DNA from: Candidatus Abzuiibacterium crystallinum
GTDB lineage: Bacteria; Omnitrophota; Omnitrophia; Omnitrophales; Abzuiibacteriaceae
Assembly: GCA_002787155.1 (NCBI GenBank)
Contig: PCVY01000065.1
Span: forward strand, 1,286-65,285
DNA: 64,000 nt
Direction of reading: 5' to 3'
The translations under genes and the position numbers were made by a program. Positions 12,482 through 59,724 of the stretch are shown here, one piece after another. The notes beneath the pieces were generated by a model. It did not search any database. It had not been told where the DNA came from and saw only the letters and a list, made by a program, of their open reading frames with translations. The first letter of the stretch is position 1. Every line of letters begins with the position of its first letter.

Positions 12482-13510
12482 ATGCAGGCAGTCATTATTC
12501 AAGAGCATGGCGGGCCGGAAAAATTGACCTACACGGAAGTGCCCATGCCTAAAATTGATCCCGACGAAGTGCTCATCAAAGTACATGCATGTGCTTTAAA
12601 CCATTTGGATATTTGGACACGCCAAGGTTTGCCCGGTGTCCAAATCCCCATGCCGCATATTTTGGGATGCGACATCATGGGCGAAATTGCAGCCAAAAGC
12701 GAAGACACGCAAGAATTTCAGATCGGCGAGCGCGTGATTGTTTCTCCCGGGTTGATTTCGGATGAAGATCCGTTGGCCGAAACCAAATGGGAATCACTCT
12801 CTTCCGGTTATCAAATTATTGGTTTTCAAATTGACGGCGGGTATGCGGAATATGTCAAAGTGCCCGTCCGAAACGTGATTCCGGTTTCCAATCGCTTAAA
12901 AGACGACGAGTGGGCGGCGCTGCCTCTTGTTTTTCTGACAGCTTGGCACATGCTGGTAACGCGTGCGGCGGTTCAAAAAGGAGAAACCGTTTTAATTCAC
13001 GCTGCCGGAAGCGGTGTCGGGACTGCCGGTATTCAAGTGGCCAAGCATTTAGGGGCGTGTGTGATTACGACAGCGGGAACCGATGAAAAATTAGAACGGG
13101 CGAAAGAAATCGGGGCCGATTTTACGATTAATTACAAAAAGAAAGATTTCGCCGATGAAGTGCGCAGACTCACAAATCAGGAAGGTGTGGATGTGGTGCT
13201 TGAACACATCGGCCCGGAAACATTTGTGAAGAGTTTAGCTTCTTTAAAGAAGAAAGGCCGCCTTGTGACTTGCGGTGCTACCAGCGGGCCCAATGTTCAA
13301 TTAGACCTTCGATTCATTTTTATGCGCCAGCTGGCCGTCATGGGCTGTTACATGGGCGGTATTGAAGAATTGCGTGAAGTGGTCAAACTGGCTGAATCAG
13401 GGGTTTTTAAACCGGTTGTTGATAAGGTGTTCCCGCTTAAAGAGGCACGGGCTGCTCATGAGCGTATGCAGAAACGTGAAAATTGTGGGAAAATAGTGCT
13501 GAAAATATAG
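12482..13510 (+). CDS. Zinc-binding dehydrogenase / quinone oxidoreductase (MDR family)
   Basis: ALNHLD, PHILGCD, GGYAEY, AAGSGVG, GATSG, GKIVL. Confidence 0.9.
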   Translation: MQAVIIQEHGGPEKLTYTEVPMPKIDPDEVLIKVHACALNHLDIWTRQGLPGVQIPMPHILGCDIMGEIAAKSEDTQEFQIGERVIVSPGLISDEDPLAETKWESLSSGYQIIGFQIDGGYAEYVKVPVRNVIPVSNRLKDDEWAALPLVFLTAWHMLVTRAAVQKGETVLIHAAGSGVGTAGIQVAKHLGACVITTAGTDEKLERAKEIGADFTINYKKKDFADEVRRLTNQEGVDVVLEHIGPETFVKSLASLKKKGRLVTCGATSGPNVQLDLRFIFMRQLAVMGCYMGGIEELREVVKLAESGVFKPVVDKVFPLKEARAAHERMQKRENCGKIVLKI

Positions 13511-13644
13511 GGTTTAGCGTATACGGAATAAAATCTGAAAGCATTTATGTGTCATGCCCGTCAGCCAAAAGACTGCTTCGTCCTATGGCGGAAAAACGTG
13601 CGGGAATCACATTGAATCCTAAACGCTATACACTAAACGCTATA
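13506..13644. repeat. 7-mer inverted-arm cassette (no ORF inside)
   Basis: TATAGGG TTTAGCG TATACGG ... CCTAAAC GCTATAC ACTAAAC GCTATA. Confidence 0.6.
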
Positions 13645-18432: not shown

Positions 18433-19710
18433 TCACAGGCCGCCAGTAGAGATTTCAATAAGCGGTAGAAACATAGAGATAACCAGTGTCCCGACAATCA
18501 CACCCATAAAGAGAATAACCATAGGCTCAATAATGACAGAAAGCCGTTGAATGGTGGCGTTCACGCGCTCTTCAAAGAAATTGGCGATCACTTCTAAGAA
18601 ACGGTCTAATTGGCCGCTTTCTTCCCCCACTGAAATCAGCTGTGTCACGAAAACGGGAAAGGCACCTTCTTTTTCAAGCGCCATGGCAACCCCGCTTCCT
18701 TTTTTAACACTTTCTTTCGCACGCTCCACCCTGTCTTCAATCGGCACTGTTCCGACCAGGGTTGATGCAATTTCCAACGCTTGAATAATCGGTGTACCGG
18801 CACGCACCATGGTGCCAAGCCCTCTCGCAAACCTCACAATGGCCACTTCTGTGATAAAAGTGCTCACCACAGGTATTTGAAGCTTAAATGAATCAATCCA
18901 TCTTTTTGACTCTCTTCTGCGATTGAAATATGCATAAGCCATAATAAAAAAAACAATGACTAATACAATCAATATAAAGTGAGATTGCATAAAACGACTC
19001 GAATCTAGGACTAATTGGGTAACTTCCGGAAGTTTTCTGTTCCGTCCAAAACTCTGAAAAACTTTCTCGAAAGTGGGAATCACCTTAACCATGAAAATAC
19101 TCAATGCTCCAATACAAAAACAGATCAAAATAACCGGATAAACCATGGCAGAAGTCAGTTTGCTTTTAAACCGTTCGCTCGACTCTTGATAGTTCTTAAT
19201 TTCGGTTAAAACCTCGGGCAAGGAACCGCTGGCTTCGCCGGCTTGAATTAAGCCAAACCAAAAAGGCGGGAAAACTTTTGGGTATTGAGCCAGGGCCCGG
19301 CTCAAGCTAAACCCTTGGCTGATTTTCTCAATCGCACCTTGTAATACTTTTTTTAAAAGCCCTTTCTTAATTCCTTTTTCAATAATCCCAAGCGACCTGA
19401 GAATCGGAACACCTGCTTTGAGAAGTGCGATCAATTGAATAAAAAAGGAAAGGAGATCACTTCCTTTCACAGTTTCAAAAAGCGTGATTTCACTGAATTT
19501 GGTTACTTTTTTCTTAGATTGATCAGCGGCGTTTTCCCGCTCTTGCTGCGTGAAGGTTTGTTTTTTACTTCCCGACTCTTGAACGGATAAAACAAAATAA
19601 CCCTCCGTTTGCAGCTGACCAACAAGGTCTTCTACATTCATGGCTTCGCGCACAAACTGCTCGATCTTAGCGCCTTCTTCCCGTTTTTTAACTTTGACGT
19701 TGAATTTCAT
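18433..19710 (-). CDS. pilC: Type IV pilus / T2SS platform protein PilC/GspF
   Basis: AGVPILRSL, GEASGSL, SAMVYP, VGEESGQL, IEP...SMFLP. Confidence 0.9.
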   Translation of the reverse strand: MKFNVKVKKREEGAKIEQFVREAMNVEDLVGQLQTEGYFVLSVQESGSKKQTFTQQERENAADQSKKKVTKFSEITLFETVKGSDLLSFFIQLIALLKAGVPILRSLGIIEKGIKKGLLKKVLQGAIEKISQGFSLSRALAQYPKVFPPFWFGLIQAGEASGSLPEVLTEIKNYQESSERFKSKLTSAMVYPVILICFCIGALSIFMVKVIPTFEKVFQSFGRNRKLPEVTQLVLDSSRFMQSHFILIVLVIVFFIMAYAYFNRRRESKRWIDSFKLQIPVVSTFITEVAIVRFARGLGTMVRAGTPIIQALEIASTLVGTVPIEDRVERAKESVKKGSGVAMALEKEGAFPVFVTQLISVGEESGQLDRFLEVIANFFEERVNATIQRLSVIIEPMVILFMGVIVGTLVISMFLPLIEISTGGL

Positions 19711-19722
19711 GTTTATCCTTAA

Positions 19723-20187
19723 AGCAGTTACCAGAAACCAGCAACCAGATACCAGAAATGATTATCTGGATACGAAAGACGAACTTTTTATTAAGCCTTT
19801 AACCATGCTGGTAATTTCTCGCGCTTGAGATTTAAGCTCCCAATATAACTCTTTCTCAATTAAACCTTGCTGCTCCAAAACAATTAACACCGAAACACAT
19901 TCTCTAGCTGAATCAGAAGAGGTCCTAAAATAGCGAAAACGTTCTTTGCCGGAAATCTTGTCATTTCCTTCCGCTAGGTTATTAGCAATTGAAAGAGCCG
20001 CTCTAATGAGATTTTCGCCTATGGAATAGCGATATTCTTTTGGTATTTCTTTAACAACTTTGAAAATCTGATCAATAAACACCAACGCTTTCTGATAAAC
20101 TTTCAAATCTTCAAAATCAAACTTGAATTCTTGCATTCAATAAACCAACTCACTCTGGTTACTGGCAGCTGGTTTCTGGTTACTTCT
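19723..20187 (-). mobile_element. Four-helix-bundle gene cassette bounded by 35-bp inverted arms of 5 x 7-mers
   Basis: Left arm AGCAGTT ACCAGAA ACCAGCA ACCAGAT ACCAGAA; right arm reverse complement AGAAGTA ACCAGAA ACCAGCT GCCAGTA ACCAGAG (28/35 identical); mobility is inferred. Confidence 0.6.
19762..20136 (-). CDS. Four helix bundle protein (23S rRNA IVP / bAvd-like family)
   Basis: FEDLKVYQKA, P.E.RY....LIRAALSIANNLAEG, F...S..SAREC, EITSMVKGLIKS. Confidence 0.9.
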   Translation of the reverse strand: MQEFKFDFEDLKVYQKALVFIDQIFKVVKEIPKEYRYSIGENLIRAALSIANNLAEGNDKISGKERFRYFRTSSDSARECVSVLIVLEQQGLIEKELYWELKSQAREITSMVKGLIKSSSFVSR

Positions 20188-20203
20188 TTTTACATGCTAT
20201 ACG

Positions 20204-22396
20204 CTAAGATTCATATGCAATACTCAACACTTCCTCAAATGTGCTCACACCTTGTTCCACTTTTTTAATACCGCTTTCAAGCAAAGTCTGCATCCCTGCT
20301 TCACGCGCCGCTTTGCGGATAGTGCCCAAGTCTTCGTTGCGGGCAATTAAATGCCTAATGTTTTCATTGATCGGCATGATTTCATAGATAGCTTCACGGC
20401 CCCAATAACCGATGTCACGGCATTTCTTGCAACCCTTGGTTCGATAAATCTTGCGAGTTTTGAGTTTAAATTCTGCTGCTTCTTTTTCACTGGCTTCATA
20501 GGCTGACTTACAATGCGGGCAAAGCTTACGGATTAATCGCTGAGCGCCTACCATGAGTAAACTGCTAGATACCAAGTAAGGCTTCACACCAATATCAATT
20601 AAGCGGGTTACCGCGGTTGGTGCATCATTTGTATGTAGGGTGCTCAACACTAAGTGACCCGTGAGTGAGGCGCGTACGCAAACCTCTGCCGTTTCTTCGT
20701 CGCGCACTTCTCCCACCAAAATCACATCCGGATCTTGACGCAGAAAAGCCCGAAGACCCGAGGCAAAAGTAAGGCCGATGTCAGAGCGTACCTGTACCTG
20801 CCCAACACCTTCCATTTGATATTCGACAGGGTCTTCAATGGTCAGAATATTCGTATCGACTGCTTTAATATAATTCAGTGCGGCATAAAGCGTGGTGGAT
20901 TTACCGCTTCCCGTCGGACCCGTAATAAAAATAAGCCCATGCGGGCGTTTCACCGCTTCTTTGAAAATCTTTACTTGGTCTTCTTCGAAGCCGAGTTGAT
21001 TCAGCGTTTTAATGCCGGATCCTTTGTCTAAAAGCCGCATCACCACACGCTCGCCGTGCACCACGGGGACGGTCGAGACACGGACATCAATGTTACGATC
21101 TGTGTATTGAATGCTGAAAGAACCGTCTTGCGGAATGCGTTTTTCGGCAATGTCCATGCGCGATAAAATTTTAATGCGCGAGACAACAGCCAAATGAAGT
21201 TGTTTGGGAGGCGGCGGCAGCTCGTAAAGATTGCCGTCTAAGCGGTAACGAACGATTAAGCGGTCTTCAAAAGGTTCAATGTGAATGTCGCTTGCTTTAT
21301 CTTCAATGGCTTTCTTGAGCAGTAAGTCCACAAAACGAATGACCGGCGGTTGATTGGCGTTGGATTCTTTGTCGTTTAATTTAATTTTGACATCAACGCG
21401 TTCCTGCGCGGCTGATTTGGTTTCTTCTTCCATTTGCCGGCCGGATGTCACTTCTTCCAGCTGGACACTGCCGTAAAACATTTGAATTTTCTTCTCAAGT
21501 TCAGTCGGCCCTGCTAAAACAGGAATAATTTCAAGACCCGTGAGTTTCCGGAGGTCATCTAACATCAAAAAATCAAAAGGTTTCGCGAAAGCAACCGTTA
21601 AATTACGTCCTGAGCGAAAAAGAGGTAATGCTAATTTATCGCGGGCAAATGACTCGGGAAAAATTTCCTTCAGCCGCTGATCAGCTCTGGGATTTAACTG
21701 TTCGCCAATCATCATAGGGATATTAAGCTGCTGTGATAAAGCCACGATGATATCCGTTTCGCGGCGGACAAATTGAAGGTCAACTAAGATCTCGCCAAGC
21801 GGCCGGTTCTCTTTCTTTTGAATTTCCAAAGCCTCCTGCAATTGGTTGTCTGTGATGAGGCCCTGCTGAACCAATATCTCGCCTAATTTAAGCTTCCGCA
21901 CGGATGCTTTGATGTCAACCGTCATGGGGGCTTCTTCTTCCGGCCTGGTTTTAGCGCATAAAGCATAAAACTCTTCCAGCTTGGGTTCTAAATCTTTTTT
22001 CTTTGTTAAAACGGGATCGATTTCAAGATGGGTTCGCTTGGTCAATTCTTCCACGACCGATGGATCAAAGGTGTAAGCAAAAGCAACGGTCAATTGTTTT
22101 TCGGTTTTTTGAAGCGGTAAAACAGAATACTGCCGGGCCAGGGCTTCGGGAATCAAGAGGTGGAGATTTTGATCGAGCTGCGGTTTCAGCTGCTCGCCGA
22201 TCAGGATGGAGATATTGAGCTGCTGAGAAAGGGCGACTAAGATATCGGTTTCGCGTTTGATATATTGAAGCTTAAGAAGAACTTCGCCGAGAGGTTCTTT
22301 GAGCTTTTTTTGCTCTTCAAGCGCTTGATCAAGCTGGTCTTCTGAAATCAATCCCTGACTCAGAAGAATTTCTCCCAATCTTCGAGTCTTTCCCAT
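20204..22396 (-). CDS. pilB: PilB/GspE assembly ATPase with duplicated MshEN-type N-terminal modules
   Basis: Two RLGEILxxxGLI..QL..AL..Q...LGE modules; ASDIHIEP, GPTGSGKS, EDPVE, LRQDPD, LTGHLVLSTLHTN, CPHC/CKKC. Confidence 0.9.
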   Translation of the reverse strand: MGKTRRLGEILLSQGLISEDQLDQALEEQKKLKEPLGEVLLKLQYIKRETDILVALSQQLNISILIGEQLKPQLDQNLHLLIPEALARQYSVLPLQKTEKQLTVAFAYTFDPSVVEELTKRTHLEIDPVLTKKKDLEPKLEEFYALCAKTRPEEEAPMTVDIKASVRKLKLGEILVQQGLITDNQLQEALEIQKKENRPLGEILVDLQFVRRETDIIVALSQQLNIPMMIGEQLNPRADQRLKEIFPESFARDKLALPLFRSGRNLTVAFAKPFDFLMLDDLRKLTGLEIIPVLAGPTELEKKIQMFYGSVQLEEVTSGRQMEEETKSAAQERVDVKIKLNDKESNANQPPVIRFVDLLLKKAIEDKASDIHIEPFEDRLIVRYRLDGNLYELPPPPKQLHLAVVSRIKILSRMDIAEKRIPQDGSFSIQYTDRNIDVRVSTVPVVHGERVVMRLLDKGSGIKTLNQLGFEEDQVKIFKEAVKRPHGLIFITGPTGSGKSTTLYAALNYIKAVDTNILTIEDPVEYQMEGVGQVQVRSDIGLTFASGLRAFLRQDPDVILVGEVRDEETAEVCVRASLTGHLVLSTLHTNDAPTAVTRLIDIGVKPYLVSSSLLMVGAQRLIRKLCPHCKSAYEASEKEAAEFKLKTRKIYRTKGCKKCRDIGYWGREAIYEIMPINENIRHLIARNEDLGTIRKAAREAGMQTLLESGIKKVEQGVSTFEEVLSIAYES

Positions 22397-40840: not shown

Positions 40841-41992
40841 ATGATGGAACACACGCTTATTTCCAAACCAGATTTTGATACCCAAACGCTTGAAGTCAGT
40901 TTGGGGCCGCAACACCCTTCAACGCACGGTGTATTTCGCATGAATGTGGTGTTGGATGGTGAGACGATCGTCAAATTAAAACCCGTCATGGGTTATCTGC
41001 ACCGCAATCACGAAAAGTTAGCCGAGAACATGTCTTATCTGGGCTCCATGCCTTATACCGATCGGCTAGATTACATTTGTTCGATGACGAACAACTTTGC
41101 CTATGCCCTAGCCGTTGAAAAATTGGCGGGTATCGAAGTGCCGGAACGCGCTCAATATATCCGCATCATCATGGCAGAACTCACACGTCTTGTGAATCAC
41201 ACGCTTTTAATTGGATTTTTGCTCAATGATTTGGGTGCTTTTTTTACTCCGGTCCTTTATGCTTTTCGCGAACGCGAAAAAATTTTAGACCTGTTTGAAG
41301 AAGTGGCAGGTTCGCGCATGATGTGTAACTATTTCCGCTTCGGCGGCGTCAAAGCGGATTTAACGCCTGATTTTCTGCCGCGCGTGAAAGAACTCATTCA
41401 AAACTATCCGCGTTTCTTAGACGAATTTGAAGCTTTGCTTTCTGAAAATGAGATTTTAATGGCGCGCACCCAAAAAGTAGGTGTGCTCCCGAAAGAATTG
41501 GCCGTGAGCGCCAGCATCACAGGCCCGATGCTGCGAGCCTCAGGGGTTCCTTATGATATTCGCAAAGTAGATCATTACAGTCTTTATGACCGATTTAAAT
41601 TTCGTGTCCCGATCGGAGAGCACGGCGATGTGTACGACCGTTATTACATTCGCGTTCTTGAAATGAGAGAAAGTATTAAGATTTTAGATCAAGCCGTCAA
41701 AGAAATCCCGTCAGGTGATGTAATTTCAAAAGTTGGAGCCGGTTTTGCCAAAGCGCCGCGCAATTTTAAACCCAAAGCCGGCGAAGCTTACGGCCGGATT
41801 GAAGCACCCAAAGGCGAGCTGGGATTTTTCGTCGTCTCAGACGGAACCAACAAGCCTTACCGTTATCACGTTCGCGCACCAAGCTTTATCAATTTGACCA
41901 TCTTAGAAGACATGTGTTTAGGACACAAAGTGCCCGATGCCATTATTATTTTAGGCAGTATTGACATCGTTTTAGGCGAAGTAGACCGATAA
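40841..41992 (+). CDS. nuoD: Complex I subunit D
   Basis: [31 protein letters not shown]. Confidence 0.95.
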
Positions 41993-41995
41993 AAA

Positions 41996-42098
41996 AATAA
42001 AAATGAAGAATGGAGAATGAAGAATTTAGGTGACCTCCGGTCATTTAAATGTGCAAAACGCTCCAAAATTCTTAACTTTTCATTCTTAATTCCTAATT
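41996..42098. repeat. 7-mer inverted-arm cassette between nuoD and nuoI
   Basis: AATGAAG AATGGAG AATGAAG AATTTAG ... CAAAATT CTTAACT TTTCATT CTTAATT CCTAATT. Confidence 0.7.
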
Positions 42099-42107
42099 GA
42101 GGATTTT

Positions 42108-49607: not shown

Positions 49608-49610
49608 GTA

Positions 49611-49747
49611 CAGTGTTCAGTGACCGGTGGCCAGTGATCAGAAATACTTTCAGATAATAATAAACGGTAAATCGGCTCTGATTTAAAAACAATATTAAAA
49701 TTAAGCGTTGGCGCGGCTGATCATTAACCACTGAGTACTGACCGCTG
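49611..49747. repeat. 7-mer inverted-arm cassette downstream of nuoN
   Basis: CAGTGTT CAGTGAC CGGTGGC CAGTGAT CAG ... CTGATCA TTAACCA CTGAGTA CTGACCG CTG. Confidence 0.7.
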
Positions 49748-49862
49748 ATTTGCTTTGACTTTCTTTATGTGTTAATTTACTAATAGTGCACAAGAGCACC
49801 GGACGCAAAAATTCTGGGCTCAGACCCCGCGTCAATTGCGGCTTCTGCGCTACACCAATACC

Positions 49863-59614: not shown

Positions 59615-59624
59615 GAAATAAAAA

Positions 59625-59702
59625 AATAAGAGGAGAGAGTAGAAAGTAGAGAGATAATCGCTGCGGTGTTTTTCTCCCTACCCTCTTCTCTCTACTTGCT
59701 AC
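59625..59702. repeat. 7-mer inverted-arm cassette between atpB and atpE
   Basis: GGAGAGA GTAGAAA GTAGAGA ... TCCCTAC CCTCTTC TCTCTAC TTGCTAC. Confidence 0.6.
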
Positions 59703-59724
59703 TATAACTAAAACGGAGGTTAAA

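Follow-up and report, generated by a model that had tools for sequence, protein, structure and literature searches.

Organization of the pilB-pilC Junction

The window analysed here, a 64,000-nucleotide stretch of contig PCVY01000065.1 from Candidatus Abzuiibacterium crystallinum (Omnitrophales), carries a small gene between the host genes pilB and pilC, enclosed by inverted arrays of 7-base repeats. The features of this junction are:

18433..19710, minus strand: pilC-type gene (host), best match PilC/GspF
19725..19759, plus strand: 3' arm, five CAG-xx-AC-type units on the opposite strand (repeat analysis)
19762..20136, minus strand: four-helix-bundle gene, 124 aa, PF05635/TIGR02436 (profile search)
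20151..20185, minus strand: 5' (purine-rich) arm, five CAG-xx-AC units (repeat analysis)
20186..20206, minus strand: outer, non-cognate part of the 5' array, consisting of two TAGCGTA-type units plus an A-rich step
20204..22396, minus strand: pilB-type ATPase gene (host), best match PilB/GspE

An initial annotation of the window had described the gene as flanked by 35-bp inverted arms of five tandem 7-mers, and this description was confirmed. The arms at 19723-19757 and 20153-20187 are identical as an inverted repeat at 28 of 35 positions, the best-scoring arms (19721-19756 and 20154-20189) at 30 of 36 with a longest perfect run of 13, and each arm is built of five 7-base units of the CAG-xx-AC type. 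The extent of the array needed correction: five cognate units are present as described, but the 5' array runs three further 7-base steps, in register, back to the stop codon of pilB, the TAG of which forms its first 7-base step. Two of these three outer steps are of the TAGCGTA type, frequent elsewhere in the genome, and to judge from its sequence this outer part is possibly the relic of an earlier element. The enclosed gene has a G+C content of 35.5%, compared with 43-46% in the neighbouring genes. No sigma-70 promoter or terminator pattern was found within 19600-20350, Rfam gave no above-threshold match at the cassette, and no long direct repeat, as would bear on a template/variable repeat arrangement, was detected within 19400-20500. 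The upstream PilB (730 aa) contains two MshEN c-di-GMP-binding domains, and most of its orthologues in the order are open frames of about 570 aa.

The cassette contains no catalytic gene. Consistent with the initial annotation, ORF and profile searches found no reverse transcriptase, transposase, or recombinase inside it, its sole enclosed ORF matching only PF05635 and bAvd-like families. The encoded protein scores 89.4 bits on PF05635 (cut-off 33.8) and 85 bits on TIGR02436 (cut-off 24), and 27 bits against the Avd profile, below the cut-off of 80. Its structure model (pLDDT 89) has four helices, and Foldseek matches it to 2GSC, 2RLD, and Avd with TM 0.75-0.83 (0.75 to 4DWL, an Avd), which bears out the proposed family and Avd-like fold. 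Named homologues come mostly from Candidatus Omnitrophota, where the host likely belongs. The 2GSC and 2RLD entries hold five chains each, and by analogy with these solved relatives we infer that the cassette protein forms a homopentamer. The genome encodes three intact members of the family and one remnant, all of which sit inside an inverted pair, each with a different unit.

Association of the Gene Family with Heptamer Arrays

The association of the family with such arms was assessed across the order in a sample drawn from 30 loci and 80 regions from 160 matches, 20 further loci, and two loci of the genome itself, yielding 103 distinct full-length genes, 101 of which have full flanks. The arm test, which requires period-7 arrays on both sides and an inverted match between them, was passed at 65 of the 101 family loci, 36 failing its strict version, versus 0 of 400 other ORFs of 90-150 aa, a control drawn from one genome and set against related loci that are not independent. 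Among 402 ORFs of this size in the genome two pass, both of them family genes, and the association is seen at period 7 only. The expectation that periodic inverted arms are commoner around this family was thus upheld. In the computed mRNA-sense fold, the arms pair and the ORF is looped out, as had been anticipated, with a z-score of -3.85 and none of 100 shuffles as good. That an ordinary small gene should lie inside an inverted repeat by chance, a reading in favour of which there is the imperfection of the arms and nothing else, is refuted by these controls and retains practically no probability.

Comparison of relatives revealed that the site itself is patchily occupied. In most of them pilC overlaps or abuts pilB, and 33 of 38 orthologous junctions (23 and 15 from two comparisons, including the cassette described here) are free of any insert, their stop and start codons overlapping in most cases. 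The other five comprise this cassette, a second cassette in G002, a gene-less heptamer pair in G035, a palindrome, and one rearranged junction. The cassette in G002, a genome of the same family, is unrelated and uses a different unit: the two cassette proteins are 27% identical over 85 aa, as against 64% identity for PilC. G002 also carries a cassette after pilC, where the genome studied here has none. Among six paralogous pilB-pilC junctions, one holds a third cassette and one a gene-less pair. A metagenome scan with PilC found no closer relative having the junction, and a genome scan with the cassette protein returned one weak fragment. The palindrome, L191 (G090:C87), is near-perfect and not heptameric, an insert of another kind in the same position.

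The best-resolved insertion site belongs to a relative of the window's cassette, not to the window's own, and was read at the genus level in 17 of 20 genomes. Seven of these junctions are stop/start overlaps, six have spacers of 3-8 bases, two hold remnants, and two hold full cassettes placed exactly between stop and start. One remnant retains the last codons of the gene and the 3' arm; the other groups with a full copy as its sister (100% support). The deep branches of the genus tree are unfilled, and empty sites nest among filled ones at weak nodes (34-61%). No target-site duplication beyond one shared base was found at this site. At pilB-pilC a repeat of 5-7 bases borders the insert, but it is confounded by the gene overlap, since selection for two intact genes would leave the same repeat. 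The selfish insertion unit put forward in the initial annotation fits these empty sites and the insertion between stop and start codon well. No enrichment for co-directional junctions was seen in the genome (44 of 52 array-bearing gaps versus 1631 of 2008 of all gaps).

Gene and unit move together from site to site. The 13 closest proteins in a 401-genome sample of the phylum (51-69% identity) all have CAG-type arrays, as read by eye, one degenerate and one variant, and occupy 11 different junctions (three sharing one), none of which is pilB-pilC. The neighbours at those junctions, as we recognise them from sequence, presumably include grpE/dnaK, carA/carB, and guaA/purF. Over the 66 loci that passed the array filter, clades share units and protein identity correlates with unit similarity (Mantel rho 0.17, p = 0.001): the unit is common to 12 of 16 pairs that are more than 65% identical, versus fewer than 2% of pairs below 45%. 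Of the close pairs, 68 of 77 of at least 55% protein identity have no common neighbour within 450 bases, and 15 of the 16 pairs that do have a common neighbour but proteins less than 55% identical have unlike units. Shared descent alone may produce such co-variation of protein and unit, kin not being independent.

The Repeat Unit and Pairing of the Arms

After cyclic alignment, a procedure that itself favours a shared letter, the unit at the 66 loci reads N-A-G-N-N-N-W, with G at 95%. The 5' arm is purine-rich at 58 of the 66 loci; its units contain AG at 55 and CT at 13. The arm starts no more than 10 bases from the upstream stop at 53 of the 81 loci in which a stop was found within the searched range. 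At 22 of these 81 the stop codon is in phase with the N-A-G slot (p = 0.002), but since an upstream gene may extend into the array, this test is circular in part and was given no weight for the mechanism. In three loci of other clades (L001, L002, and L074) a short CCC(C/T)CCACGAA motif precedes the start codon, followed in L001 and L074 by a G-rich stretch that could hide a ribosome-binding site.

The number of units per arm has a median of 4.9 and 4.7 for the two arms, a mode of five, and a range of 2-14, the detector requiring about two units. The suggestion that five 7-mers match five subunits is therefore compatible with the typical array, while the range shows that five is not a fixed number.

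Two properties of the arms bear on whether they act as an RNA helix or as two copies of a motif. Among mismatches between arms at the 66 loci there was no G-U bias (85 G-U versus 83 A-C), and a mismatch at the G position occurs in just 3%. Identity between arms, 76.8% in register, falls to 74.3% after the order of units is shuffled (61 loci, p = 0.001). Units of opposite arms resemble each other (0.692) as much as units of one arm do (0.683). The hairpin is thus mostly a by-product of one motif placed on both strands, with a slight but significant real excess of in-register pairing.

These data must be weighed against an RNA-level element, in which the arms would pair in the operon mRNA, RNase III would cut the stem, an Avd-like pentamer would hold the RNA, and a reverse transcriptase supplied in trans would re-insert it. 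The arms do fold together, with a duplex energy of -46 kcal/mol, but the longest perfect helix at the locus is 13 bp, the G-U bias is lacking, and little pairing is unit-by-unit. The accessible parts of two reports offer precedents: Coxiella's intervening sequence (IVS), with the same protein family and heptamers in its 5' arm, undergoes RNase III cleavage at the first repeat (PMC4990558), and the five Avd protomers all touch a single RNA stem-loop (10.1101/2023.10.23.563531). The latter, together with the in-register excess, favours an RNA step. Both RNase III and one reverse transcriptase are encoded in the genome, the reverse transcriptase being unlinked, on another contig, and below the cut-off for group II introns. 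In 46 of 51 unambiguous cases the gene runs in the same direction as its upstream neighbour, although this is expected of any promoter-less gene, and cutting without re-ligation would split the pilB-pilC message. On balance we regard the RNA-level route as unlikely. The mRNA intervening sequence envisaged in the initial annotation is thus the weaker reading: the arms can pair, but their complementarity comes mostly from the shared unit.

Several searches made alongside are recorded here. The only reverse transcriptase found, L198 (G000:C43:159-1463), is a lone gene of 434 aa that overlaps the start of a type I restriction helicase-like ORF. No PF13366 nuclease was found in the genome. In contigs from 4 of the 15 DNA runs, a joint between the arms ("skips 398") was considered as an excision product and rejected, since its filler maps to a gene-less sibling hairpin on contig C71.

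Heptamer Arrays without Genes

The cassette is not a unique feature. The genome contains 83 period-7 arrays, whereas no other period between 4 and 12 has more than 24. Inverted pairs at period 7 number 48, a few of them overlapping or doubtful (about 45 in all), versus at most five at other periods. These represent some 10 unit types. Four pairs that lack a gene lie within the window:

13494..13642: gene-less inverted pair, TAGCGTA type, where a quinone-oxidoreductase-like gene ends
41985..42107: gene-less inverted pair, AAGAATG type, filling the nuoD-nuoI gap
49610..49748: gene-less inverted pair, CAGTGNT type, directly after nuoN
59616..59706: gene-less inverted pair, GTAGAGA type, immediately after the gene for ATP synthase subunit A

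Most pairs in the genome are likewise gene-less, only the three intact genes and one remnant being enclosed. For each intact gene, the genome also holds pairs of the matching unit that enclose no gene, while for several common unit types no cognate family gene was found in this 95%-complete genome. The loops of gene-less pairs are mutually unlike, although contigs C3 and C72 do carry a small number of identical copies. The single remnant beyond the three intact genes scores 14.6 bits (best shuffle 14.3), and in another profile search it passes TIGR02436. The unlikeness of the loops and the presence of only one recognisable gene remnant give no sign of recent copying. Two different unit types sharing one gap were observed twice, against 0.6-2.0 expected, which is not significant.

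Further arrays in the genome depart from this pattern. Gene-less pairs at C8:9325-9553 and C51:43557-43801 have a second, GC-richer palindromic element in the loop, which we take to resemble a REP-like insert. In the GTACGA-type unit (C71:18771-19275 and other GTAC-type pairs) the pyrimidine-richer arm comes first, opposite to most types. Of 14 ORFs exceeding 2,500 aa, the longest, at 11,138 aa (G000:C6:42077-69756), contains at least 10 single unpaired CAGGGA-type arrays in frame, each at a similar position in a repeated region and encoding short Gly/Arg/Gln/Asn-rich stretches.

The gene might be a passive hitch-hiker, arrays grown by slippage promoting illegitimate recombination and the gene travelling along without recognising them. 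According to the accessible text of one study, many genomes have heptamers as their most frequent long simple repeats, with slippage as the proposed cause (PMC4679880), and both the variation in unit number and the unpaired arrays within the longest ORF agree with such growth. Slippage, however, leaves unexplained why the same unit stands inverted on both sides, why a G is near-invariant over dozens of unit types, and why the arrays are tied to one protein family. We therefore give the hitch-hiker reading little credence.

Conversely, the pentamer might be a domesticated regulator, a host RNA-binding protein recognising N-A-G repeats both in its own mRNA and in hairpins without genes and so tuning downstream genes, for which TRAP provides an analogy. 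Purine-rich AG units lie 5' of the gene at most loci, every intact gene has gene-less pairs of its own unit at other sites, and similar readings have been proposed, in the accessible parts of the papers, for repeats in Geobacter (PMC2700814) and Beggiatoaceae (PMC4679880). Against regulation, close relatives differ patchily in sites and unit types, both of which show rapid turnover, no cognate gene was found for several common types in this 95%-complete genome, and the hairpins that could be identified follow unrelated housekeeping genes. A regulatory role thus seems improbable.

A Model for a Cassette without a Catalytic Gene

The comparisons above establish the anatomy of the cassette, its patchy sites (empty, gene-less, or differently filled), the coupling of protein clade to unit, and the remnant. 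The explanation we favour, at somewhat better than even, is a selfish, slow-moving cassette in which the predicted pentamer would bind its own unit and host enzymes would move it. Insertion would land between the stop codon of the upstream gene and the start of the downstream gene, as it is mainly such insertions that would survive, and the gene would be expressed by read-through from the host operon. The pentamer would then bind its own arrays at both DNA ends, with about one unit per subunit, reading the unit through the near-invariant N-A-G, and host enzymes would cut and join the cassette. Deletions would leave gene-less pairs, which may thus be decayed cassettes.

We tentatively extend this proposal to a class of mobile elements that lack a catalytic gene and consist of a ring pentamer with a private 7-base code, borrow a host enzyme, and settle at stop-start junctions; their decay could yield both heptamer repeats and ORF-bearing rRNA IVSs. 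This possibility is more speculative than the model for the cassette itself.

The cassette links a widespread protein family of unknown function, the ORF-bearing rRNA IVS, and the abundant intergenic heptamer repeats, and it may account for the 7-base repeats that have been a puzzle in bacteria. A ligand can be predicted for each protein clade; if the model is true, each would be a natural repeat-specific reader of nucleic acid. Should the specificity hold, these proteins would be a new family of pentamers that read repeats, and Avd possibly had its free-living origin among them.

Relation to Known Systems

The STRR heptamers of cyanobacteria are likewise intergenic 7-base tandem repeats. In Beggiatoaceae, TAACTGA repeats lie in tandem just before start codons (PMC4679880). 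TAACTGA has the form of a cassette 3' arm; the accessible text of that paper describes direct repeats, names S1, Csp, and Csr proteins as candidate partners, and makes no mention of the PF05635 family. In Geobacter, five tandem heptamers occur as opposite-strand pairs between operon genes such as proBA, with a consensus that is the reverse complement of the CAG-type unit (PMC2700814). They were read as sites for IHF/HU-type regulators, and the available passages and 12 of the 19 supplements of that paper contain no link to a four-helix-bundle gene.

The nearest published parallel is the S23p IVS in the 23S rRNA of Coxiella burnetii, with heptamers in the 5' arm and an RNase III cut at the first repeat (PMC4990558, accessible parts). 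It shares with the cassette the protein family, terminal inverted repeats, and length (428 versus about 470 bases), and its 5'-arm unit contains CAG, as the cassette unit does. The cassette likewise has the terminal inverted repeats able to form a stem by which an IVS is recognised. Unlike the IVS, it lies between protein-coding genes rather than inside an rRNA gene, and unlike an RNA stem, its arms carry no RNA-helix signature across loci. The Coxiella paper, in its accessible parts, treats the heptamers as a local feature.

The protein family has been encountered in other settings: in the portions of these reports available, its homology to Avd has been noted (PMC10053308), members have been found inserted among cas genes (PMC3936711), and in one case its genes are merely listed (PMC8700078). 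Avd itself is described as pentameric, each of the five subunits taking part in nucleic-acid binding (PMC6182149, 10.1101/2023.10.23.563531). The cassette protein has the same fold; unlike the Avd of diversity-generating retroelements (DGRs), it scores under the Avd cut-off and has no adjacent reverse transcriptase.

In REP/REPIN-RAYT systems a gene lies between inverted copies of a short repeat that belongs to it, and the RAYT is an HUH (Y1) transposase. The layout of the cassette is similar, with a gene within its own repeat, many gene-less inverted pairs, and one repeat type per clade. Unlike a RAYT, the cassette protein is all-helical with no catalytic domain known, and in place of palindromes the repeats are heptamers in tandem. 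Relatives show both filled and empty sites, as with insertion sequences and MITEs, but the cassette has no transposase and its gene-less loops are not near-identical.

Outside the Coxiella IVS, we found no paper joining the PF05635 family to inverted heptamer arrays in a literature in which subscription journals were sparsely covered. The pieces are already in print, as IVS ORF with heptamers, Geobacter sites, and TAACTGA, but no paper found there unites protein and arrays in a general cassette. By membership the cassette is not an rRNA IVS, a DGR, an insertion sequence, or a RAYT. By analogy, it would work like an IVS-type cassette freed from rRNA, with the layout of a REP/RAYT system.
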